NCBI RefSeq assembly: GCF_015852565.1
Contig: NC_136191.1
Location: 11,976,578 to 12,040,577, forward strand
Source: Branchiostoma floridae
Lineage: Eukaryota
Direction: 5' to 3'
DNA: 64,000 bases
The translations under genes were made by a program, and so were the position numbers. The notes under the pieces were generated by a model, which ran no database searches, was not told the DNA's origin, and saw only the letters and a list, made by a program, of their open reading frames with translations. Numbering within the stretch: position 1 is the first letter of the stretch; every line of letters begins with the position of its first letter. Below are positions 25,766 to 64,000 of this stretch, one piece after another.

Positions 25766-25794
25766 GTGAGACATTACATTACATTATCGATCCT

Positions 25795-36458: not shown

Positions 36459-38079
36459 TATTCTGGCACATTATATATCATCAAGATGTGTAGTACTCTG
36501 TGTCAATTTTATACTCCTACATTTTGTTCAATGTTCCCGATGTCATGACCTACATAGATAAGGAACTTATCATTTTGTTTCCAATGGATATTAAATTACA
36601 ATGTTATAGCACTGCCAGAACTGACAACTACATGGTACATTCAGATAATGCTTGTACATGTACCTTAATTCAATAATATAGACCAAATAAATGTACACTC
36701 ACACAATGTAATACATACATGTACATGGCTTTCCTTTTCCTTTGAATGCCATCATTGCATGACATTTATAGAGTTTGAACATTTTACAGCCTGGAACTTA
36801 AACAAAGATAAGCTTGGTGGAAAACAACAACAAAAGAAAGACTGGTATCAAGAAACAAGAGGCAGAACACCCAGGAAAAATATAAGCTGCCAGTAGAAGG
36901 TGGTAAAATGGATTGATTGACTTATTTAGTGCTCAATCAATTAGAATATTCAGAATTCAATACAAAGAAATAATTATGAGTTTGTATACACAATGACATC
37001 ATGAAAATCAGTACTGAAGTGCCAGAAAACAACAAACTTTCTAGGTGTCTGAAATTCCAAATATTTCAGCAAATATTGTAGTAATTTCTCTAAGTCTAAG
37101 ACACATCAACTAGCAAATATCATTCATGAAAATTGATTCTTTGCTACAAAACAATTCATTACTTGTACATTTTCTGAAATTCCAAAGAACATCCTAGCAA
37201 TTTGTCTAAGACACATTAACCAAGAGTTGACAGTAACTGAGCTTTTTAAGTTTATAGAGTTAATGTTTCTGAAGATCCCCCGGCTCATTCAAACTGCTGT
37301 GTATCCTCTCTAATGCTCAGTTGGATACAAATCTCACATCTATACAGTCTGTAACAATTTAAACATTTGCCCAAAATAACAAACTGATTGACTGGGTAAA
37401 CGCTTTTCTACAAAAAAGGAGTGGAATTAACCCAGCTGTGAGAATTGCCTTGGACATATGGTTCGAAGAGTCTTAGAGTGTGCCAAAAATACTGCTTCAA
37501 TTGTAGCAATTGAAAAACATCTATACATGTATATGAAATGCTGGCTCCTATTTACAATTTTGTATTTGAATAATTAAATGTTATATATTGCTTAGATACT
37601 CCAGCAGGAAGAGGACAGTTTTACCAGTGTCCACCAAGCAATGGTCTCGGGACCATGGATAAGCAATGTCAACATACAATATATTTGCTGTTTTAGTATG
37701 ATGGAAAACATATTCATGACATACTGTCAAGGTTTGCACACTTGTTAATCCTGTAAGCTTTGTATCAAAACAAAAGGTCTGGGTCTTTAAAAGGATTATA
37801 TGGATGTAACAGTTAGTCCTTTTGATGACGAAATGGCTTCAATATTTTGTCAATGGCAAAAAACATTTAATTTACCAAGAATAACACTACACATACAGAT
37901 ATGGTGCTTTTCAATACTTCTGATCAAGTCTGTTGCTGATAACTTAATCAATGTCTGACTTTACTTCACATTTTATTTAACATGTAACACAAGGGTAACA
38001 CAAGGAGTAGAAAACATTGCTGTAGTCACTCTGCCTAAAGTACTGCTCCATTTTACATGGATAACGACTGTTTGCTTTG

Positions 38080-38232
38080 TTATAGCGTGGGACCAGGTTG
38101 CCGTGCGGAAGAAAAGCCGAGTCCAACTCCCTTCTGGGTGTGAGTCGTGCCCCGTGCAAACTCGTACTGCGCCTCCAGAGAACGGAACAGTTTCTCCTGC
38201 TCCTGTTGGATGTCTGGTCCCTCTGCTGGGCC
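38080..38232 (-). CDS. RSRC2-like: RSRC2-like terminal exon (GPAEGPDIQQEQEKLFRSLEAQYEFARGTTHTQKGVGLGFSSARQPGPTL, stop)
   Basis: A ttttcag acceptor. Matches the human RSRC2 tail QQEEVFRNLDAQYEMARSQTHTQRGMGLGFTSS. TAA stop at 38082-38080. Confidence 0.8.
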   Translation of the reverse strand, partial: GPAEGPDIQQEQEKLFRSLEAQYEFARGTTHTQKGVGLGFSSARQPGPTL

Positions 38233-38604
38233 CTGAAAACAGATCAACAATATCTAACTCAAAGTCCACTGACAACTACAGACAACTACAACATTCATGT
38301 TGGCCACTTCTGTGATCTAACAAATATGGCTAAAACAGAAGTATTGGGGATGATTGGGAAAGGTAAAAAAGACAGCCTAGACTGCAACAAAACAGAGGTG
38401 GCAAATGTGACTGTACTCAGAGATCAAGAGTTAAAGGAACAGATTTTGATATGTAACAGCAAAGCAAGTTGAGGGCTTGACCATGCCTTAGATAAATATA
38501 AAGCTCTTTGACAGCTTTCTTTCTTTCTTTCTTTATTCATTAAAATCAACCTTACAGAGATTAATTACAACTGTGACTTGTGAAAGTAATTAACATGGAC
38601 ATAC

Positions 38605-38724
38605 ATGACTTGCCCCACTGCCTGATGCCTCTCCATGGATTCCCATCAGTCGGCGGAACTTCGCCTGCGTGGCCTCGTCATGGAACTTGGTTTTATCCCA
38701 GACAGTACCCGCAGGAGCATCACC
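38605..38724 (-). CDS. RSRC2-like: RSRC2-like SMAP-domain exon (GDAPAGTVWDKTKFHDEATQAKFRRLMGIHGEASGSGASH)
   Basis: A tatcttag acceptor and a CAT|GTATGT donor. The KF(R/L)RLMGI motif is typical of the SMAP (small acidic protein) domain found at the RSRC2 C-terminus. Confidence 0.75.
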
Positions 38725-39090
38725 CTAAGATACACATACAGAGGGGGTACTCAATTATCAAATAACTAAAACAGTCAACATGTTGGTACATGCTAATGAA
38801 TGACAAAGCGATTTAAATATTGTTATTCATTTAAGCCAGAGAGGAAAACAAATATATTGCTGCGTGCAACTCCATCAGGGAAAGAACATCACAGAATCCA
38901 TTCAAATGGATCCAAACTACTATGCAACAAAAAAGAAAGTTGTAAAGACCCAATGAGCTAGAGCTCCATTTGATTGTACATATTGTTGGATTACAACTAC
39001 AGATACTTTATCATAGCAATAGCAATAGCAGCTATCAGGTGATAAAATCTAAAGTAACCCAGCATGATGTCACAAGGTCTGTAGACCTAC

Positions 39091-39192
39091 CTCTTTCTTC
39101 TCCTTCTTGCCAGCCCAGAGCAGTTTTCTTTTCTGCATCTGTTCTGCATACTTCATGGGGTTCACTGCAGTTGGGTTGTAGTAACTTGGTAC
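39091..39192 (-). CDS. RSRC2-like: RSRC2-like exon (VPSYYNPTAVNPMKYAEQMQKRKLLWAGKKEKKE)
   Basis: A gttggccag acceptor and a GAG|GTAGGT donor, 34 codons. Resembles the conserved RSRC2 NP..KYAEQMQKRKLLW block (from memory). Confidence 0.75.
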
Positions 39193-39415
39193 CTGGCCAA
39201 CACACATATAATGGGCAGTCATGAACTGTTACATTTAGTAAACTACTAGTATGCAAACCTTCTAAGTTGAAATTTTGTGTGTTAAAAAAAAAGATTCCAG
39301 TATTAGGACCACAGGACTGATGACTTTGAGAGACTTTGAATACAGACTAAAGACTGGTGAAGCACAGTCTTATGTAGTATGAAGGTTTCACCTGTATGCC
39401 TGTCTCAGCAGCTAC

Positions 39416-39525
39416 CTTCATCTGCATGGCCCTGGCAGCTGCACACACGGCCTCCTGGGGCGTCACCTGCTGTCCTGCCAGCAGGGGGTTCACTCCAGCG
39501 ATGGAGGGGGGCGCACCTGCAGCAG
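39416..39525 (-). CDS. RSRC2-like: RSRC2-like exon (AAGAPPSIAGVNPLLAGQQVTPQEAVCAAARAMQMK)
   Basis: A tatgtatttcag acceptor and a GAAG|GTAGCT donor. Phase 1 in, phase 0 out. Confidence 0.7.
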
Positions 39526-39667
39526 CTGAAATACATACAGGTGCACATCTTTTTGGAATGCAGGAATGCAGGAATGCAAGACAAAAATGTCATAAGACTC
39601 AATGACAAAGCATGAGAATGATTTCTTACAATATCTTGACATGTGTAAAGTATCAACACTGTCCAAC

Positions 39668-39885
39668 CTTCACCACTCTCCAGTTTAGCCTCCATCTCAG
39701 CCTTTTCTCGTTCGGCCTTTTCCTGCTGTTTTTTCTTGGCTCGCTCCAGCCTCCTGCGCAGAGCGTCCTGTGCGTCCAGGGCAGGGTCACCGGTTGGACT
39801 GGCGCTACCGGAGGAGGAACGTGACCGGTCCCGATGACCTGGGCTGCGACGGCGCCCACGTCCCCGCCCGCGACCACGCATGCCC
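39668..39885 (-). CDS. RSRC2-like: RSRC2-like exon: RG/RS repeats followed by a coiled-coil (RRRLERAKKKQQEKAEREKAEMEAKLESGE)
   Basis: A ccccacag acceptor and a GAAG|GTTGGA donor. Anchored to the minus ORF 39405..39980. Confidence 0.75.
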
Positions 39886-40291
39886 CTGTGGGGACTAAAC
39901 ACAAACATTGTGTACTCATTTATGTAAGGAATTGGAAATAAAATGTGAGCTTCTGTAAAGAGACTTATGTTGTAAGACACATTTTTGGTGGGTACAGTGT
40001 TCTATAAGAGATTCTTTAGGCAAAAATATTTTTCGAAGGAAAGAGATGGCTAATGCCATTAAATCCTAGTGGATGCATTCTTTGTAATGCTTTCTAGATG
40101 CAGTCTTCTACAATAATTAATAACATGACTATGTCACATTAAGAAAATTATAGTCTGTGTGACGCGAAGACTGCTATCCTAAGCTGTAACTGGCCCCTCC
40201 TCGCTAGGAGGTCGGCTGATGTTGGGCGGGCTGCTATAAGCAAGATTTAATCAGGCTAAGAAAATTACATATAACAAGATATAGAACCAAC

Positions 40292-40639
40292 CTTCTCCGA
40301 CGAGGGGGTGACCTCCGATGATCTCTCCTGGGTATGGGTGACCTCGAATGACGCCTCCTTGGAGATCTTGACCTTTTGCGTACAAATGGTGAGCGCGACC
40401 GTGACCTCCTACGAGGAGATCTTGACTGCTTCTGTGGTGATCTTGAATGCCTTCTGGGTGATCTTGACCTTGATTTTGAGCCCCTGTGATGAGGTGACTT
40501 GGATCTAGCTGGGCTGAGCGACCTGGATCTTGATTTTGTATGCTTCTTTGACCCTGATTTTGATCTGTGAGGAGTGGGTGATCTTGATGATGAATGCCTC
40601 CTGTCTGGAGATGGTGACTTGGAACGCCTCCGTGCCTCT
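40292..40639 (-). CDS. RSRC2-like: RSRC2-like second RS-domain exon (EARRRSKSPSPDRRHSSSRSPTPHRSKS...RSPPRRRR)
   Basis: A ctgatttgtag acceptor and a GAAG|GTTGGT donor. The phase joins AG+A to the previous exon. Its mirror image appears as the plus ORFs 40308..40508 and 40530..40784. Confidence 0.7.
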
Positions 40640-40827
40640 CTACAAATCAGAGAAACACAGGAATATTATTAGATGTTTTATCAGATTTTTCAGGAATTTT
40701 GACAACAATCAATATCGAGCCTTCCTTGGCGGTCACAAGATCAATCTTTTAACTGATACAAACCTTGATAGAACTAAAATGTAGAAAATCAGAAATGTTT
40801 TCACTGACAAAAGCATATTTCATACAA

Positions 40828-41172
40828 CAGGGCTCGAAATACTTTTTTCTGCATACCCGCACTGGTGTAGGCAACATTGAAAATCACAGGTGCACCAGAC
40901 AAATTCTACCTGCACCACTCTGAATTCAGGAAGTATGGATACCAAAGTTGTTCCATTGCTGTTTTTTCTTTGAATACTTTAAATTATAGTCAATGCATGT
41001 AACAGTCTATGCAGCTGATAACAATCTACATACGTCTACATCATAAGACATTTATATTCAAAACCCATTACATGGACCAGTGCAGGTTAGGTGCAGGTAG
41101 ACACCTGAAATACCTGCACAGCTCCAATTTACCTGCACTAACCTGCATATGCAGGTGGTATTTCGAGCCCTG
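40828..41172. mobile_element. MITE family A copy 1 (345 bp) in an RSRC2-like intron; TIR CAGGGCTCGAAATAC / GTATTTCGAGCCCTG; 5-bp TSD TACAA
   Basis: Perfect 15-bp terminal inverted repeats. Subterminal TGCAGGT/TGCACC reiterations. Identical TACAA sequences directly flank both ends. Confidence 0.75.
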
Positions 41173-41372
41173 TACAAGGAATCTTACTGATCCCATAGCT
41201 CAATCCACCCCTTCTACACTTCAACCAAAATATATGACTGCAAATCTTTAATAACAAAATTGCTGCCATCATCCAAAAGAAGTAGCCACTCTCTTACTGA
41301 CTAAACTTATCACTATTTGATATAAAACAGCTATTGTTTTATACATTACATACAAAGGAGACTTGAACATAC

Positions 41373-41971
41373 CTGGGGGGTGACCTTGAACGTGATCTCC
41401 GTCGTCTCCTGTCTGGTGACCTGCGCGAGTCCCTCCTGTCCTTGGGTCTGCCTTTCTCCCAGTCTCGAGACGACCTCCGAACTGGACTGTCCCGTGAACC
41501 ACGTGCCCCGTCGCGAGAACGCCGTCTCCTGTCCGGAGATTTCAGTCTGTGCCTCCCCTCTGGAGACCCCTTACTCCTGTGTGCCTTCTTCTTTGGCGAC
41601 CTAGACCTCTTACGCTTTGGAGAAGGGCTTCTTGATGATCTTGAACCTTTATAACCCTTCCTGGGTGAGACAGACCTTCTGGGTGATGGTGACTGCGATG
41701 TCCTTGACCGTCTTGGTGACCTTGAAACTTTTGGTAAACTCCTTGGTGATCTCGACCTTTTAGGAGACCTTGACATCTTGGATTTACTGGGAGACTTGGA
41801 GTATCTTGGGCTGTTCTTATTGTGAGACTTCTCTCGCTGATCCACAGGTGAATGAGACTTCCGTGGACTCACACTTGCTGACCTCGATGATTCTCGTTGT
41901 CTTCTTGGGGATGGGCTACGATCAGATGCCGGGGATGCACCAGAGAGACGTCTGTCTGTTACAGACTTGTC
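41373..41971 (-). CDS. RSRC2-like: RSRC2-like large RS-domain exon (Ser/Arg/Pro-rich; SPRKSHSPVDQ...RSRSRSPPR)
   Basis: A ttcttcccaaaacag acceptor at 41972 and a CAG|GTATGT donor at 41372. ~200 aa of SR/SP dipeptide repeats. Anchored to the minus ORF 41339..41872. Confidence 0.7.
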
Positions 41972-43726
41972 CTGTTTTGGGAAGAAGTGGCGTCTTACAA
42001 GGGATAATGCAACAAAACAAAATTAGTATCAAGAAGTGGCAAAGTTGTCCACCTGGAAGAGAAACAGACTAGAAGCGAAGTTAAAGATTCTTTCATTAAT
42101 CCAAACAACAACTCATTTCTTTGCTTGTTGTGTGAGTTTTTATTTTATTTTTGCCATTGAACTCATTCCTCATACAGGTAGTCCAAGCTTTGCACCAGAA
42201 ATCGTAGGGTTTTGTAAGATACTAAACAATACAAACCCTGATACTTTTGTTAAAATGTGTTTATTTTAGTATAGAGTATGTAGGAATGCTGATGCCGAAA
42301 ACTGTGTTTTGTTAAGTGAGGGTTTCAAATCCTTTGTACTCAATTCTATCTACATACTACATAGCCAAAGACCATATTATTGTGTTCTTTTTTTTTCATT
42401 TCAAAGGCAGGCAAGGATAAGCATGATCACAGTGAGGAGTACCAAACAAATAACCGTCTCAGTCTTTCTTGTTACAAACCAAATGAAAGATAGACCTATG
42501 ACTTACATATCACAATAGTACACAATACGATGAAGAATAGATACTTTTGCATACATAAGAAGACTCACTCTGAGATGTGTACAGACACCAAGCAGCTATT
42601 TACCTGTAGCAGCCACTGGTCTAACAAGAAGGGCCGGATGCTTTTGTCCCGGCCAGCTTCACTCGGAGTACTGGGCTCGCCGAGGCATGGTTTAAGCTGG
42701 TGCATAGTTCAGCAATTATAGAGGTGTTATTATGTGTTATTACATCTCTTCCACTGTACTATGACAGTAGGCTATGCTTCAGTGCTCCTTCCAAGTGTGT
42801 ACTTACATCATCTGAGATGGTAACTGATAGCTGTTGTACTTATATGCTACACTCACCTCCAGAATTTGTATGGAATTTGTATCTCTAGTGATAAAGCAAC
42901 ATACAAAAAAATCTTTGGAAATACAGACATTCTAGGAGAGATTCAAGAGAATAATTGCACCAAAGTTGAGCTGTAACCTCTATCCACATGTGGAAAATAA
43001 ACATCATCTTTGCAAATTGTACTATTATATAAAGATTACTACATAAAAAAATAGCTGGTGTGTTATGCCAAAGGGTAGTTACAGCTGCTATATCCATACA
43101 GATACAGATAAAATATGAATTTCAAGGCTTTTAACATGTAGACAGAGGTCCAGTCAATCCTGGAACAATTTTTAGCCATGTGAAAAGAACATCTGAGAGA
43201 ACATCTGTGTACTACGAGTTTTTCATGCATATGAAACTAGAAACCACATAATATCTCAATCCAAAGTTAGAAAACTAGTTGTTCTCCACTGCCATGGAAG
43301 ATATCCTGTGGGCAAAATGTTGTTAATTTTCCTGGACTAGTTCTTGTTAGCACAAACATACAAAACTACAATCTCTAACTATCAGTATAATAAACAAAGC
43401 ATGCATATCCACAGGCTGTGACAGAAATATTACATGTATACAACAAACCAGAATAGATCACTGTTGGAATTTGGGTCAAACTTGACTGACAAGTCTAACG
43501 ATATCCCAGATGATATTAATACGTACAATGGATTACATACAGAACTTGAAAACTAAGCATTTGCTGTGACTTTACAGTCATCGTTATAATCCCCAAATCA
43601 ATTTTTCATGGTACTGTATGTGCAACCCTGCATTACTTAAGCATAAAATGATAAAATCAATACAATAGCATGCTTGGCCGTTAGTTACAACTTACAAGCC
43701 TCTGAATGTAAAAGAGACAACTTTAC

Positions 43727-43849
43727 CTCTGGGTCTTGCTGTAGGTCAGACATCTCAGCCTCCAGACCACTAGAACTAGCAGCTGCCTTCTGGCCTTCTC
43801 TGGTATACTGGGGCAGATTTTCTCGTGGCTGCAGAGTCACAACAGGGAC
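43727..43849 (-). CDS. RSRC2-like: RSRC2-like exon 2 (VPVVTLQPRENLPQYTREGQKAAASSSGLEAEMSDLQQDPE)
   Basis: A tttatag acceptor and a GAG|GTAAAG donor. Open in frame, phase 0/0. No homology support; it rests on splice and frame consistency only. Confidence 0.4.
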
Positions 43850-45396
43850 CTATAAACAATATCACTGACTTTTAAAATACAACTTCAAGGATGTGTTCTA
43901 AATACAAAATTCTTTTATAGTTAATGGCTTGCATGTGTAATGCCCCTGTTAAAGAGTAGCTATAAGACAAAGAATTTAAGTAAACTGGTCTAAAATACAA
44001 GCACAAATATATTCTATAAGTTATAGACTATAACTACAACATGTATAAATAGAGTAAGTTACTTCCTAACCTTCATAAAGAGTTCTGTCTTATCTTGCAA
44101 ACAAAATTGTAAGTTGAATGTGTAATGTTAAAGGGATTTGAATTTTTCATCAGTACAGTACCATCTATATTGCCCTTGGCTTCACACCAAGTGCATAGGC
44201 TATGCTATGCAGCATAGCAATATCAAATCATTGGAAGACTTCTAATTGAACCACCGTAACCCCAAGGTGACACTGACAATGTGCTGTGGAAGCAATTTCC
44301 ATCTCAGACATAATTTGATGAAACCGTACCAGCCAATAAATCATTATCATGCTGAACATTGCTGCTACTGCAGGACTTCATCACGTACTCAGGAGGCACA
44401 TTTGCATGTAATTGAACAGTGTACGGATGTTCCAAATGAAAGGCCATGAAAGTGAAACCCTGCATACTAATGGCAGGGAAGATACAGTATGCTCTACTAG
44501 ATTTAGTAGGTATTGCACAGTTACAGTAGTGCTGTTCCATATCCCAAGAGAAAGATGAATATTATTTTTCATAAGGACCCCTCATGGAATGCGGTGAAGA
44601 AGTTGTTCGCTGTGTTTTAAGTTAATGATCAAATTGGATGTAGTTACACAATCAATGAATGCCAGACTTACTGTCACTTAGCACATGACTCCCTAAACAC
44701 AGGACCTCAATTTAACGTCCCATCCAGACATTATCCGGACAATAAAAGGTGGACATATATAACGTTACAGCTTCTAAATATTACTTTACATGCTAACAAA
44801 GCCTTGTAACTCTAATTCTAACCTATTTTTTTTCTCGGCAAGTATTTATTTAGCAAAGAAATACTTTGAAACTAGAAGTAGGATATATCATATGTGTTAT
44901 GTGTATAAAACTGTATAAACCAAGGGCAATGTCATTTTGACTGTCGCCCTACATTGGGGCGACTTGGTAGTAAATAGCTGGGGGGGAATTGGACTTCGGG
45001 CGACTTGACCTGTAACCTTTGAATTAAAAATACAGGCACCAATTTTCGACCAAGTTGAAATGAAATTTGCACCCCTACACACTCTATTCAAGTTTAACTA
45101 TCCACGTCCTAATATCTTGATTTGTCTGCCTGTGTTACCAAGGTTGAGTCTCTTTTGTAGGAAATATTAATGAAATCATATACGTAACGTTAAGCATATT
45201 CATGTAACATCACAAACATGTATATGGTGGTAGACCGCCATATTTGGCAAGATATGTTTTCATGTTGTTCTCAGTCGGGCGCCCTCGAGGGCTACAAAAC
45301 ATTCAGGGTTTTAGCTCAAAATGTCGCCATAATTGCGTTTATCTGCCACAAATTCTGTCAGAAAGTGTAATACACAGTCTACGCTGTACATCTTAC

Positions 45397-52875: not shown

Positions 52876-53189
52876 CTGGAAGTGAAGATGTGGAAATTTA
52901 CTTAAGTCTCTGCAAAAACACTCAATACACATTGACAGGCAATAGCTGCTTCTGCATTAACAATCAGTGATGTTGGAAATATCAATTAGAATACAGAGCA
53001 ATGTGGTAAGGATTTATGTATGATGTATAAAGACAACATGCTTATACACTTACTATATGATTTATCATCTTGATCAACTGATTCAATTTAGGAAAGTTGA
53101 GCTGTTTTGAGTATAAATTCAATGAGTCTCTTTCACAATAAACATTATACATGTAATGTATGATGTAACGAAAACTTGTGTCTCCTGAC

Positions 53190-53333
53190 CTGTCTAGGGG
53201 GAGATCCATTATACATGCGAGTTGGGCTGTTGGACCTGCCCTTGGGGGGAGTTCCCCTGTTCGGACTGGGGGAGCGATAGCTGGAGGCAGCTGTGGAGGG
53301 TGGAGCAGGGGAGTAGCCAAGGGGTCGTCCACC
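53190..53333 (-). CDS. Coiled-coil gene, Ser/Pro-rich exon (GGRPLGYSPAPPSTAASSYRSPSPNRGTPPKGRSNSPTRMYNGSPPRQ)
   Basis: A ccatccag acceptor and a CAG|GTCAGG donor, phase 0/0. Contains SP/TP phospho-type motifs. Anchored to the minus ORF 53145..53348. Confidence 0.4.
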
Positions 53334-53960
53334 CTGGATGGGAGACAAACATCTGCGTCATTAACTGATACAAAATTTCAGCTACTCTTTTTGGCAAACT
53401 CTTAATTCTATTCAACAAGAATAGAAGATAAAGAGCTTTCATGTAGTACAACAGCTCTATGATGTGAATGTAGTACACAATACATGTCACAGCTGTGGGT
53501 CTATCTATTGTTCCTCACAAGCATGAATGTTGTAAAGCCTTTTAAAGCTGTAAAAATAAATCTGAAAGCCAACCTTTCAAAGTGGCCTGCTATCCATTAA
53601 TCCATTACTTTTCATGGTCAATAACAAGTCAAAATGTTCTGCTCTATGCAAACACAAATACTCAAGCTTTCTGTTGGTCCAATGCTGAATAATTGATAAA
53701 TAGGGAAACTACTATAACTGAGTGAGATATTAAGGGCTGTTATTAAACAGCTCACAAAAGCATAACTGTCTTTATGGGATAGCCAAGCTGTCGCCTTCCC
53801 GCGAGGGAAGAGAAAACAATTCTAACATTTCAAACATCACAAATTCAATACACCTTTAAATCACTTGCTGTACTAACAGTTACACTGCGGGACTTTCACT
53901 ACACATGTAGTATAACATGTCTATCCAATTTCTCTGAAACTAGTAGTATATGAACCGTAC

Positions 53961-54019
53961 CTTTGATTTTGGTGTGCTTTGATACTGCGGGTCATAGCTG
54001 GGAAGACTGTAGTGGTTCG
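53961..54019 (-). CDS. Coiled-coil gene, candidate N-terminal exon (-NHYSLPSYDPQYQSTPKSK) with an LPSY (L/PPxY-type) motif
   Basis: A ttcttttgcag acceptor and an AAG|GTACGG donor. S/P/Y-rich and open in frame. Phase is compatible with the next exon. No homology support. Confidence 0.3.
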
Positions 54020-55009
54020 CTGCAAAAGAAGAAAAAGGTTTAACCGTATTTTTAGAGACAGCAATAAAGACAAAAAAATTATGACGCAAAATACAAATGG
54101 GATTCTGTTCCCTACAATACTATATACATCATACATCTTGGTTGTAAGTCATATGAAATCACTCTTGATAATAAATGATACAGTATTTCTTTTACAGATG
54201 GTACTTGTGATAAAAGTCACAGGACCTATCCCATTCTTTTTGTACAAGAATTTTGTTTATCCTTAAAACATCTGATATAACAGCCCACCTGCCACAGAGT
54301 AAACAAGTATCAAGTGACGTACACCTAATGGTGAACAATGGACACAATGTAACTCATTCTCAACAAATTGTCAAACAATCTGTATAAACAAAACTTCATC
54401 CCTGCCCACCCATTTTACTCTGGGAAAACTACCACAGTACTTTTCATCACAACCAAAGCAAACCAATATAACCTTGAAGTAACAAACCTACACACAAGGT
54501 GCAGTCTGCCATGAAATTGAAAATTCTGTTCTTGGCACTCATTTCGATGGGTTCAAATTGGACTGAATGAGGACTAAATGAGGACGCGTTCTGGAAGGAT
54601 GGCTGTGGAATCACCAGGCTTTGTCCTTGCCGAAATTTGAGTACATGATAAAGAAACATGTAAACAGTGTGTCATCCTGGCTGCCTAAACAACGATTCAA
54701 AAGGGAATGAAAAATGGTGGGATGTTGGCCATTGTATGCCCCTGTTTATAGTATACAGTCTCAAGATAAAGGACAATGTTGGGTTATACAAAGTTCTGAA
54801 TGATAGTAACATAGAAATAACAATGTTAGCCACACTGAGATAGCAACAATGTCCCTGTCCATACACCTTTGACAAAAATTACTATTGCATACAAATATAT
54901 ATTCTACAGTGCCAAGGTCAGTTAAGTGAAGAAAATTCCCCAAGGGTTGTTGACAGGCTTGAGAACAACTAGAAGTTTTCTAATAATAATATCAAACATT
55001 GTACATATA

Positions 55010-55739
55010 CAGGGCTCGAAATACCACATGCATATGCAAGTTTGTGCATGTAAAATTGGTGTGGTGCAAGTAAGTTTGGACCAAACTTGCACCAGTGCAA
55101 GTTACTTTTATCCACTAATACCTGACTTTAGAAAAAGCTTACACACACCAAGAATATTGTCTGCCATTGAAAGGTAAAAGAAAACAACACTGAATAAAAA
55201 AATAGCCTAAATTTGTTATTTCTAAACTTGGTTAGACATCCAGGTAAACAAAATTTGAAGACAATTCCATCTCTATAATGCTAATAATTCCTTTGGTGTT
55301 GTCTTACCTTGATTTGCATATGAGTAAATACATTTTGCATACAATTTAGTGACTTTGATATGATCAACAGGATTTTCCAGTTATATGTGTTTGTATTGAG
55401 TTGTTCTAGCGATGGTTAAGAATAGTGATGGAAGTCACTCGAAGAGTCCAGAAGAAATCTATTGATCTTATCAAGTTGTAGACATTGAATTGTCTTAAAT
55501 TAAGCCTAAATTCATATTTGTTGTACAATTTGAAATCCAAAATAAAATACGCTTTGGAAAACAAATATCCAAACATGTGGTCTTTATGTATCCCCATATA
55601 TTTGCAAATTTTCAGAAGAAGAATAAAGGGTTAACAGTTCACTATTTTGGGTTGTGCAAGTAAGTTTCTTTTGGTGCAAGTTACCTTTGGCTTAACTTGC
55701 ACTGGTGCAAGTTGACTGAAAAGTGTATTTCGAGCCCTG
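55010..55739. mobile_element. MITE family A copy 2 (730 bp); TIR CAGGGCTCGAAATAC; 5-bp TSD ATATA; subterminal GTGCAAGT reiterations
   Basis: Terminal inverted repeats at 55010 and 55725-55739. ATATA directly flanks both ends. The first ~470 bp recurs at 63527-64000 at ~99% identity. Confidence 0.8.
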
Positions 55740-56974
55740 ATATAGGTAACAAATTATGGAACAAAGACAGAAAAAAGTTACCTATATTGACATACACCAT
55801 TCGGAACTGGTTACAGTGAACATTGCAGACGTTACGGTCCATTTTTCCCCAACACTCGCAGGAAAACAAGAGGAGCTCCAACAAACGTTACAATGTTACC
55901 GCCAGAAATGTATCCAACAGTATCCCAAACAGCTGAAACCCACGCTAGGTGGTTACGGCTACTTGCTCCAATGATTGCTTTAGAATGCAGACCAATCATT
56001 GCACCCTTTCACCCCCTGTAAGTGTATCCCATAGACTGTTCTTATGCAGATCACCATGATTATGCAAATTAAAATGAGAGGGAAGCAACTTGTCTCCATA
56101 CCATTAGCAACACTTATGGCAACCTTTGTGTCCACCACAAAGGGATCTTTTTGCTTCAGTGGTCTTGTAAACTATGATATTTGAGCTTGAAAATGTTAAT
56201 CAATTCAAGTGTAGCACAGAACATATACATGGCAAGTCCTATTCTTATTCCCAGTAGAAAGAAAAATTAACTGCAGTCTGAACAAAGCACAGTTTAGCTC
56301 CTTTCTCTTTTAATGCTCAGACTTTTTGTTGTGTAATTTTGTAGCTTATTTAAGTACAAAGCATCTATGTTTAGCTATTCAGGAATGGAATTTTTACATG
56401 CAAAATTCTTTTCTTATTCTATCAATCAGTTCAAGTGTCATAGCTGAACATGAAAAGGTTCATTTGCATATAGGACTTCAAGAGAGAAACATTGAACAAT
56501 GGACCATGGTTTGTCCATGCAGAGTTTGGGAGTTACGTTTGGTACACAAGCTCCCCCTGTTGGTTTACCATTGATTAACACATGACAAAGCTTGCCACAA
56601 CTATATGTATAATTAGCCTGATTAAATCTCGCTTATAGCAGCCCGCCAAACATCCGCCGGCCCTCTAGAGGGGCCAGTTACAGCCCTGGACAGCGGAGTT
56701 TGTGTTACACAGACTATATGTATAATATAGTACTAGTAATTCAGTTTGAGAATAAAATGCTGCGATTCCTGTATTGGTTCTGAAAAAAATAGGGTCAGTA
56801 GGTAGGGATTACCTTTTAGTAGCTCTAGTGTAACTTTCTTTAACAAAGTAAAACTGATGACATGCACGAGGACATTATCAATGTCAAACTTTCATTTTGT
56901 ACATAGTGGTTACAAATCTGGATTTATACTTCATTTCATTTCATAAGACAAGCAGTTTTTTTAATTCATTATAA

Positions 56975-57852
56975 GGCCATGTTGATTTGATTATATGGAT
57001 GACATCCTCCAGGAACTCCAAAACTGATGCGAGCGAGCGAATAAAAAAAAAAGTTTGGCCAAAAAAAAAAGTTGCCTTCAGTATGAAATCAAAGTGGCCA
57101 GGAAGGTTGAACATAGGACTAAACACACATAGTATGGTATACCAACAGTTAGGTGTATGGACCAGCACATCATACAGGTGCAAAACATTTTTTTCTTCTT
57201 GGACCAATAGAAAAAAACAGACCTGAAAAAAAAATAGAGGAACAGGTTTCGCCAATTACAAAATGGACACACTATGTCGGCAGCCATTTGGGGTCTAAAC
57301 GGGGGGCCATGAAGACAACAAGAGCGAAGTCAAGTAGAGTACTTTATAGTCAATTGCACCAAGTTTCTACAGTCAAAGGTACAGAGACAGTTAGCCTTTA
57401 TTACATATCGCATGGAGATGGGATTTTAAAATGCAGTGGGAGTCCAATCATATTCACCAAACGGATTCCTTTGTAGCAAAATTGACCAATTACCATTGTT
57501 TTGAGTATTGCCAGCTCTCAAGTTTCCACAGACAATCAGGTCCAGGTTCATGTCCGGCCTGGAAATGATCCTCTGGGCCTGAATTTTCTGTACTGGTATC
57601 TCCCCCAACCAACAATAGATTTTTTTTCTTTCTGTCCTTTCACATCTTATTCTTTGACTTTAGATTCATTTTGGCATTCTATGGCATTAGTTATCTGTTT
57701 TCTGATCCTTTTTTTTCAATCTACGGAATATTTGTGCTCATTTTACAGCTGCTTTGCACAATTTATTGTGTGGTCGAAAACTTTTTTTTTTGGAAATGGC
57801 CGAAAATTGGTGCGAGCGCGGATGTCATCCATATAATCAAATCAACGTGGCC
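56975..57852. mobile_element. MITE family B (878 bp), Tourist/PIF-Harbinger-like; ~33-bp TIR GGCCAYGTTGATTTGATTATATGGATGACATCC; TAA target-site duplication
   Basis: The inverted repeat pair at 56975-57007 and 57820-57852 includes internal inverted poly-A/T and gcgagcg motifs. TAA flanks both ends (56972-74, 57853-55). The ORFs inside (56941..57287 -, 57153..57476 +) are element-derived noise. Confidence 0.7.
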
Positions 57853-60995: not shown

Positions 60996-62519
60996 ATGGC
61001 TTCTGGCAAGATGCCTGTGGACACCGCCCGCCTTCCCAGGATTGAAATGCTCCTGTACTTAATGGGATTCTGTGGTCCAGCTTTCTATTCCATCTATGTG
61101 GTCTATCGCTTATCAAAGGAGATGGAGAGCACCCTCTTTGAGGATCTAGAGTTGGACCATTCAAGTTTCCTGCCATTTCTGGGAAGAAAGAAGGACATAG
61201 CAGACTTTGAGTGGGTGTTCTGGCAGACACACTTCAGGGAAGGGCTCGTGTTTTGTTTTATCGGCCATGTCTTGGTCAGTAGACTCATGTCAATGTTTGT
61301 TTCAAAATACAGAAGAGAAGTCTACTTAGCCTACAGTTTCTTGTGCTTATACTTTGTGCTTGGATGGAAGCCCCTTGGTGTGCTTCTTGCCCATTGTATG
61401 GTGTTTTATGCTGCAGCATTATTGCGGTCAGTGCTCCTGTGCTGGGGCGTTGGAATATTCATTGTGGCCACGCTCAACTCTAGCCTTTTCAAAGTCCTCA
61501 AGTTCACATTATCAGGGGAGGACGAGAGCACATACTATCTACTACTTTTCACAGCAGCTATGTCAATTCTCCGACAGCTTAGCTTCAGCCTGGAAGTTTG
61601 CAAACTTCGCAAGGACCAAAAGGCATATTCCCTGATCGACTTCCTCTCGTATAACTTCTACATTCCGCTGTTCTTCAATGGCCCTGTGATCACGTACAAC
61701 ACGTTCCATGAGTACACTAGACACCCCATCCCATTGGACAAGACGCGCCTGGGACACATCGTGTGGAGTATGTGCCGTGTAGCAATATGGGCTGTCATTA
61801 CGGAGGCTGCATATCATCTGCTGTACTTTTGTGAACTTGAGCAACAAATCTCCATCTTGGAAAACCTCCCTCTGATGGAAGTGACCGGGATAGGATACCT
61901 TCACGTGCAATTCTTCCACGTCAAGTACATGGTTCTGTATGGATTTTCATCAACCATTGCTATGTTGGATGGAATGGAACCCCCGATGTTCCCGCGATGT
62001 GTCAGCGCTCTGTACAGCTTCACTGCGATGTGGAGGTACTTTGACAATGGCCTGCACACCTTCCTGGTAAGGTATATCTACATCCCGCTGGGCGGATCTC
62101 ACAAGGGCACCGTACGTCAGCTACTGGCATCGGCGGCATGTTTTGGGATGGTGTGCTACTGGCACGGGGGACAGTACTACCTTATCACATGGGCACTTCT
62201 CAACTGGGCAGGCATCGTAGTGGAATCTATCGGCGCCATTGTTGCAAAGACGGCAATGGTACAACATTACACAAGTCAGCTGTCATCACCCAACCAGAGG
62301 AGGTTGAAAGCACTGTGTAATGCACCCATCCTTGCCTTCCTCATCCTGTTCAACTTGGTCTTCCTGGGTGGAACCAGTGCCGGCTACGTGTACTTTGATA
62401 AGTTTTTCATTTCAGGCTTCCCCTTCACCACAGCAAAACTCCTGGCTTCCATGTACTGTTCAGTTCAACTGACTCTAACCTTTGAAAAAGTGCTGTATAG
62501 CAAGAGGAAGATTAAATAA
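60996..62519 (+). CDS. HHAT-like: Intronless MBOAT-family protein-cysteine N-palmitoyltransferase, HHAT/HHATL-like (hedgehog acyltransferase), 507 aa
   Basis: Kozak agccATGGct. The whole multi-pass membrane protein sits in one ORF. The MBOAT core WRYFDNGLHTFLVRYIYIPLGGSHKG...YWHGGQYYLITWALLNWAGIVVE aligns to human HHAT WRYFDVGLHNFLIRYVYIPVGGSQHG...YWHGGYDYLWCWAALNWLGVTVE (recalled), with the invariant His and Asp present. Confidence 0.85.
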   Translation: MASGKMPVDTARLPRIEMLLYLMGFCGPAFYSIYVVYRLSKEMESTLFEDLELDHSSFLPFLGRKKDIADFEWVFWQTHFREGLVFCFIGHVLVSRLMSMFVSKYRREVYLAYSFLCLYFVLGWKPLGVLLAHCMVFYAAALLRSVLLCWGVGIFIVATLNSSLFKVLKFTLSGEDESTYYLLLFTAAMSILRQLSFSLEVCKLRKDQKAYSLIDFLSYNFYIPLFFNGPVITYNTFHEYTRHPIPLDKTRLGHIVWSMCRVAIWAVITEAAYHLLYFCELEQQISILENLPLMEVTGIGYLHVQFFHVKYMVLYGFSSTIAMLDGMEPPMFPRCVSALYSFTAMWRYFDNGLHTFLVRYIYIPLGGSHKGTVRQLLASAACFGMVCYWHGGQYYLITWALLNWAGIVVESIGAIVAKTAMVQHYTSQLSSPNQRRLKALCNAPILAFLILFNLVFLGGTSAGYVYFDKFFISGFPFTTAKLLASMYCSVQLTLTFEKVLYSKRKIK

Positions 62520-63526
62520 CTTATTTGTGTTGTGCAAAAGTGATGTCTTAGGCCCTAGGGTTAGAAAGATTAAATAGTAGTATTTGTGACTTGTAAAAGT
62601 GATGTCACAGGGTTGCAATTGCAGACAGGAATATCCTGTTTTGCCATGTAAAATGAGAACTATATTCCAGACTGCCTTGTCAGGACTATCAATATTGTAG
62701 AAAGAAAATGAATCTAGCTTCTTTTGATATAGATATAGTTTACTTCTTTCTTGTTTGTTCAGTACTTCAACTTTTGAGTTTATTGGGCTTTTTTGTGCTA
62801 ATGAGTTTCTGAAAACAAGTTTGATCATGATACATGTACATGTGTTCGATGACATGCATTGCAAAGCAATGCAGTGTAGACAGTTCCATACTTCCAACAG
62901 CCCTATGTAATTATTGATCTACCAACACTTCTGTTGTACTGCAGCAATAACACATACAATACATGTTGTCATCTTACAGGTGTCATCTTAAAAGAAGCCA
63001 AAAGTTAGTCTAGAAACCAGGAATCATGTTTACATTTGTAAGAATTCTACTGCAGTAACACAATCAAAGATCTTGTCTTTTTCATACTTAAGATGCTGAT
63101 CAGTATGTGGTAATAGACTGTTAGCAATATGTTTCCATATCTTATTTGCCATTGTCATACATTATATATTATAGCCAAGAAATAAGTACCTTTGCCTTAC
63201 AATTAACTTGATGGGAGAATTTAAGTACAGATCTAGCTCCCAGTAAATGGAGTACTATCTAATTATATAAAAATAGCTAAGATTGCCAATGTAATGACAG
63301 TGATACATGTGCCAATTTGTACCAGTTTTTGTGAGGGTTTCATTGTTCATTGTCACTCAATTCTTGGTGAAGGGGCCAAAATACCATAAGTTGGTCACAG
63401 CTGTATAGTGCTAGAATCTAATTGTACATGAGCAAGTTATTGCATATTTCATTTACATTTCTTAATTGCTATACGACCAATCAAAGCCTAGTGTTTGGCA
63501 AGATTTATCTCGGAGGTATGGTTAAC

Positions 63527-64000
63527 CAGGGCTCGAAATACCACATGCATATGCAAGTTTGTGCATGTAAAATTGGTGTGGTGCAAGTAAGTTTGGACCA
63601 AACTTGCACCAGTGCAAGTTACTTTTATCCACCAATACCTGACTTTAGAAAAAGCTTACACACACCAAGAATATTGTCTGCCATTGAAAGGTAAAAGAAA
63701 ACAACACTGAATAAAAAAATAGCCTAAATTTGTTATTTCTAAACTTGGTTAGACATCCAGGTAAACAAAATTTGAAGACAATTCCATCACTATAATGCTA
63801 ATAATTCCTATGGTGTTGTCTTACCTTGATTTGCATATGAGTAAATACATTTTGCATACAATTTAGTGACTTTGATATGATCAACTGGATTTTCCAGTTA
63901 TATGTGTTTGTATTGAGTTGTTCTAGCGATGGTTAAGAATAGTGATGGAAGTCACTCGAAGAGTCCAGAAGAAATCTATTGATCTTATCAAGTTGTAGAC
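63527..64000. mobile_element. MITE family A copy 3 (5' part, truncated by the window end); ~99% identical to 55010-55483; left TSD candidate TTAAC
   Basis: cagggctcgaaataccacatgcatatgcaagtttgtgcatg... is identical to copy 2 except for a few substitutions. Confidence 0.8.

Follow-up and report, generated by a model that had tools for sequence, protein, structure and literature searches.

Members of the hAT superfamily of DNA transposons share the terminal consensus YARNG. According to the legend of Fig. S7 of PMC1131882, the third nucleotide of hAT termini is always G. Ac/Ds-type hAT elements and animal hAT MITEs, such as Mar of Drosophila (PMC3517528), combine short terminal inverted repeats (TIRs) with reiterated subterminal binding motifs of the hexamer or octamer type, placed in both orientations; they are mobilised in trans and make 8-bp target-site duplications (TSDs). 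Families of the same superfamily with 5-bp and 6-bp TSDs, named hAT5 and hAT6, were described in 2007 (Kapitonov & Jurka, as cited in PMC12730594), and hAT5 occurs in invertebrates and fish (PMC9004415). Non-autonomous elements are classified, in Repbase practice, by their termini, their TSD and their structure (PMC4455052).

MITEs of amphioxus have been mined in bulk, with the result of a MITE-Hunter catalogue, and they occupy ~6.7% of the genome and have propagated recently (PMC10013865). The three insertions described here come from the amphioxus Branchiostoma floridae and are probably non-autonomous hAT5-type MITEs of the hAT superfamily, belonging to two subfamilies.

Three insertions bounded by one terminal inverted repeat

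The window, that is, the whole stretch of 64,000 nucleotides of B. floridae DNA that was analysed (contig NC_136191.1, positions 11,976,578 to 12,040,577 of the forward strand), contains the 15-bp TIR CAGGGCTCGAAATAC at five sites with 0 mismatches: 40828+, 41158-, 55010+, 55725- and 63527+, all in window positions, as are the coordinates below unless a reference locus is named. The chance expectation for this string is ~1.04 matches even when up to 3 mismatches are allowed, and 5 matches were reached in 0 of 100 shuffles. The five sites delimit two complete elements and the beginning of a third, at exactly the coordinates and with exactly the sequences that the sequence-only reading of this DNA had given. 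Their sites were compared with the B. floridae reference GCA_000003815.2, chromosome CM022896.1, in which locus L028 corresponds to copy 1 and locus L026 to copies 2 and 3. The elements and their target sequences are as follows.

40828 to 41172, minus strand: MITE copy 1, 345 bp, putative "GCAGGT" subfamily, with exact TIRs at 40828-40842 and 41158-41172
40823 to 40827, unstranded: left TSD TACAA of copy 1, present as a single TACAA in reference L028 17784-17788
41173 to 41177, unstranded: right TSD TACAA of copy 1, from the window sequence and the L028 empty site
55010 to 55739, plus strand: MITE copy 2, 730 bp, putative "GCAAGT" subfamily, with exact TIRs at 55010-55024 and 55725-55739
55005 to 55009, unstranded: left TSD ATATA of copy 2, present as a single ATATA in reference L026 2399-2403
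55740 to 55744, unstranded: right TSD ATATA of copy 2, from the window sequence and the L026 empty site
63527 to 64000, plus strand: MITE copy 3, the first 474 bp before the window end, 99.16% identical to copy 2
63522 to 63526, unstranded: presumed target pentamer TTAAC of copy 3, for which the left junction alone is visible, the right duplicate lying beyond the window

Copies 2 and 3 have the same orientation, are 8.5 kb distant from each other and differ by 4 substitutions in 474 nt (0.84%), in keeping with the ~99% identity given in the sequence-only reading. Copy 1 is inverted with respect to both, its conserved end A being located at 41172, and it has in common with them the TIRs and the 63-bp end A alone (86% identity), while the interiors are unrelated; a short copy with a different interior had indeed been reported. 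The 345-bp and 730-bp elements are without coding capacity, no stop-to-stop frame exceeding 74 aa. A composite of the stop-to-stop frames of at least 22 aa of both MITE types, taken in six frames, gave 0 matches in a collection of 5.8 billion proteins, and an exact-protein look-up with a 63-aa ORF from within the MITE found no record. The elements thus show the generic features of MITEs: they measure less than ~800 bp, are non-coding, are bounded by TIRs and TSDs, and are present in 3 copies.

Empty sites and age of the insertions

All three insertions are absent from the orthologous loci of the B. floridae reference. The flanks of copy 1 (36910-40827 and 41173-45292) align to L028 13901-17788 and 17784-21833, with a 5-base overlap, and the empty site reads ...TTTGATACAA/GGAATCTTACTG, with a single TACAA. 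The flanks of copy 2 (53159-55009 and 55740-56611) align to L026 538-2403 and 2399-3271, and here the empty site reads ...TTGTACATATA/GGTAACAAATT, with a single ATATA. The site of copy 3 is likewise unoccupied in the reference, where the sequence runs CTCGGAG/GTATGGTTAAC/TTTTGC (GGTTAAC/TTTTGC); this copy is absent from the orthologous intron-3 site of the DENR-like gene in L026, L027 (GCA_019207075.1) and L031, and B. lanceolatum is among the genomes in which the site is empty. The right junction of copy 3 is predicted to read ...GTATTTCGAGCCCTG/TTAAC/TTTTGC past the window end.

Because the empty sites are clean and hold a single TACAA or a single ATATA, the 5-bp duplications were made by insertion and the matching flanks are true TSDs and not coincidental. 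It also follows that the boundaries of the elements are exactly CAGGG...CCCTG and that the occupied state is the derived one. A duplication of TA (Tc1/mariner) or of 3 bp (PIF), combined with shifted TIR boundaries, was considered and ruled out, given that the empty sites fix the length at 5 bp. This census of TSD length covers 2 complete copies and one half copy.

The same empty sites refute the idea that the repeats are not mobile and that the shared termini and 5-bp flanks come from chance, segmental duplication or an assembly artefact. Only three copies were found, all of them in one 23-kb stretch of one haplotype, which is what a non-mobile repeat could look like, but each copy is missing from the reference at base-pair resolution, leaving one copy of the flank for the two complete elements. 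Moreover, two unrelated interiors are joined to identical 15-bp termini and to the same motif architecture, and shuffled sequence never reaches the number of TIR matches given above. The probability left to a non-mobile origin is practically nil.

Over 28.5 kb, the window and the reference differ by 4.1-4.3% in substitutions, a divergence typical of allelic variation in the very polymorphic B. floridae, and the window is therefore taken to represent a non-reference haplotype of B. floridae. The 0.84% that separates copies 2 and 3 is about five times less than this haplotype divergence (~4.2%), and this small distance, together with the absence of the copies from the reference, dates the insertions as recent. 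The suggestion of recent mobilisation is thus borne out by three polymorphisms against the reference, and it is practically certain that the copies are MITEs, that they moved recently and that their 5-bp TSD is genuine. The distance between copies 2 and 3 and their like orientation fit transposition to a linked site, by which they would have arisen, possibly in the manner of Ac/Ds-type elements.

Subterminal motifs and two putative subfamilies

The window has 21 occurrences of the octamer GTGCARGT where 4.9 would be expected, and 15 of the 21 fall inside the three elements, which together make up ~1.55 kb. Each element has 7-8 (G)TGCARGT motifs in both orientations within ~100 bp of its ends. 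Past the 15-bp TIR, the two ends of one element differ from each other, yet both have clusters of the 8-mer, located as listed below.

55035 to 55102, unstranded: end-A cluster of (G)TGCAAGT in copy 2, putative transposase-binding sites, with the same cluster at 63552-63619 in copy 3
55654 to 55712, unstranded: end-B cluster of four GTGCAAGT motifs in copy 2, from the motif scan
41080 to 41157, unstranded: end-A cluster of six (G)TGCAGGT motifs in copy 1, with one more motif at 40908-40915 near end B

A MITE type with a 15-bp TIR, 5-bp TSDs and subterminal reiterations, as first proposed, is supported. The GTGCARGT motifs are putative transposase-binding sites. In their short TIRs and in the reiteration of such motifs in both orientations, the amphioxus elements resemble Ac/Ds-type hAT elements and Mar, with which they would also share mobilisation in trans; they differ from them in the length of the duplication, which is 5 bp instead of 8 bp.

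The two forms of the motif are distributed in an all-or-none manner, the counts of TGCAGGT and TGCAAGT being 7 and 0 in copy 1 and 0 and 8 in copy 2. This difference suggests two subfamilies, each of which may be matched to its own related transposase variant, because independent decay would not change every repeat of one element and none of the other.

Placement among the DNA transposons

The assignment to the hAT superfamily is based on terminal sequence, TSD length and architecture. All five ends begin with CAGGG, whose third base is the G of the hAT type, and when the Repbase criteria of termini, TSD and structure are applied, the element is placed as hAT, of the hAT5 type. The features that correspond to hAT5 are the 5-bp TSD, the CAG-type terminus, the short TIR and the reiterated subterminal motifs, which are putative binding sites; the targets TACAA, ATATA and TTAAC are AT-rich (0-20% GC over the three sites). 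These features and an animal host are shared with the hAT5 group of cnidarians, other invertebrates and fish. The amphioxus elements differ from that group in having no linked transposase, and they are set beside hAT5 by its description and not by consensus termini.

If this placement is right, a transposase of an autonomous relative, encoded elsewhere in the genome, would bind the subterminal GTGCARGT motifs and the termini CAGGGCTCGAAATAC, cut the element out and join its 3'-OH ends to the target across a 5-bp stagger, and repair of the stagger would then yield the 5-bp duplication. The enzyme would be a hAT5-clade transposase.

The 5-bp TSD had been taken in the sequence-only reading as a pointer away from hAT and toward Transib. 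This part does not hold, since hAT5 elements with 5-bp TSDs are described in PMC12730594 and PMC9004415, and every testable terminal feature of Transib and ProtoRAG fails here. Transib termini, in the account of them given in PMC1131882, consist of a CACAATG heptamer with perfectly conserved positions 1-3, a 23-bp spacer and an A-rich nonamer, and Transib targets are GC-rich. Lancelet ProtoRAG carries the blocks TR1, CACTATG, and TR5, GCCATCTTG (PMC7481187). An origin from Transib or ProtoRAG (RAG-like), with mobilisation by their transposase, would account for the 5-bp TSD confirmed in this work; 5-bp duplications are otherwise known from this superfamily, and ProtoRAG with TSDs of that length does exist in Branchiostoma (PMC7481187) and is active in lancelets. 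Nevertheless, where Transib and ProtoRAG termini have an invariant CAC, the elements begin with CAGGGCT, with G as the third base; the heptamers CACAATG, CACTATG and CACAGTG and the TR5 block are found in none of the copies; the A-rich nonamer is missing after the 23-bp spacer, positions 31-39 reading GTTTGTGCA; and the three AT-rich targets are unlike the GC-rich ones that Transib and RAG favour. Such an origin is extremely unlikely.

Termini of the form CA...TG are common to several superfamilies, namely hAT, P, CACTA and Transib. Under the Repbase superfamily definitions, P elements have TSDs of 7-8 bp, and CACTA elements have TSDs of 2-4 bp and CAC termini. A MITE of another or undescribed superfamily making 5-bp duplications (Ginger2/TDD-like, P-like or CACTA-related) is an unlikely source, though clearly less so than Transib or ProtoRAG; it gains from the fact that the transposase is unseen and that the CA...TG termini are not unique to hAT, and also from TDD-4 and TDD-5 of Ginger2, which make 5-bp TSDs (PMC2836005). 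The comparison of the TIR with Ginger gave no fit: Ginger elements have TGTNR termini and TIRs of 40-270 bp, and metazoan Ginger2 makes 4-bp TSDs (PMC2836005), against CAGGG, 15 bp and 5 bp in the amphioxus elements. PIF/Harbinger elements make a 3-bp TSD (TWA), not one of 5 bp, and an example with the TSD TAA in the same window looks different.

There is also a very small chance that the mover belongs to a transposase lineage for which 5-bp duplications have yet to be described, either a non-hAT one or a relative of RAG/Transib whose CAG termini have diverged, and that it is active today in a lancelet. Were this true, the two subfamilies, with their A/G switch in every repeat, would be the trace of a recent divergence in the DNA specificity of the transposase. 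A hAT5 origin is the reading retained in what follows.

Search for the transposase and for further copies

A Pfam scan of all 149 window ORFs of at least 80 aa revealed no transposase domain, and 154 kb of Branchiostoma DNA from seven loci, orthologues or paralogues, contained no additional copy of the element. JGI metagenomes had 0 matches to the end-A 28-mer and 0 to the end-B 20-mer, and GTDB genomes had 0 matches to the end-A 28-mer. The bare 15-mer TIR had 25 matches in IMG/VR, all single and unpaired, and these are taken as chance. The TIR string is absent from searchable papers. The family is either new or possibly already catalogued. Its members resemble amphioxus MITEs generally (LanceleTn families; PMC10013865) in being small, non-coding, TIR-bounded, intronic, recently propagated and polymorphic.

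Genes and neighbouring features of the window

The window contains, among other genes, a single-exon KLHL24-like gene (33642-35474) and, at 60996-62519, an HHAT-like MBOAT gene. The product of the latter matches, with 100% identity, an NCBI protein from a "Branchiostoma floridae x Branchiostoma ..." hybrid assembly; exact-protein look-ups of the window KLHL24-like and HHAT-like ORFs found no record.

Both insertions of the 730-bp type are situated just inside introns and near 5' donors, the exon ends being predicted from conservation and translation. Copy 3 follows the 5' splice donor of DENR-like exon 3 at a distance of 11 nt (63516-63526), and copy 2 lies ~40 nt from a conserved block on the minus strand that ends in a GT donor (55740-55781).

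At the junction 63495/63496, ~1.75 kb are missing from the window by comparison with reference L026 9195-10946. Exons 1-3 of the DENR-like (density-regulated protein) gene, with its start codon, fall in the missing segment; L027 (GCA_019207075.1) has these exons at this locus too. The junction, which shows a microhomology of GTT, is situated 31 bp left of MITE copy 3. The deletion may represent a true null allele, belong to a larger rearrangement or result from faulty assembly. An adjacent deletion made by the transposon was considered as its source and was not adopted, because 31 bp of original flank remain between the junction and the TIR.

Other repeats and structural differences are found in the window. 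At 56976-57852 lies another polymorphic TIR element, 877 bp long, with a ~33-bp TIR, GGCCATGTTGATTTGATTATATGGATGACATCC, and the TSD TAA; it is PIF/Harbinger-like, and the reference has TAA-GTT-TAA at the corresponding position, suggestive of a footprint left by excision and not of a site that was never occupied. The reference lacks a segment of 1,989 bp (30111-32099), L028 running without a break across 7645/7646; the segment is free of terminal inverted repeats and includes four tandem units of ~150 bp at 31468-31995 that are 68-79% alike. A dispersed inverted repeat of ~110 bp is present at 40149-40259 and at 56613-56718, with 80-87% identity, and the copy at 40149-40259, which lies within reference-aligned sequence, looks older than the MITEs. 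A short tandem array at 25781-25909 has a period of ~21-22 bp and an ACGTCATNNATCCTGAGATA motif, with units 71-90% alike.

Implications for amphioxus and for hAT5 elements

The elements establish no new category: the abundance of young MITEs in amphioxus is already known, and descriptions of hAT elements that duplicate 5 bp go back to 2007. hAT5 is a known but uncommon branch of hAT, and the amphioxus MITEs fit it as a tidy but ordinary example. To our knowledge, none of the hAT5 enzymes has been studied biochemically.

If the hAT5 reading is right, a hAT5-type MITE system is active at present, or was so very recently, in Branchiostoma floridae, and it has produced three insertion polymorphisms inside genes, one of them 11 nt from a splice donor. 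Such a system could serve as a source of markers for amphioxus population genetics and could point the way to a hAT5 transposase that is active. Additionally, the GCAGGT and GCAAGT subfamilies may offer a small natural case of co-divergence between binding sites and transposase.
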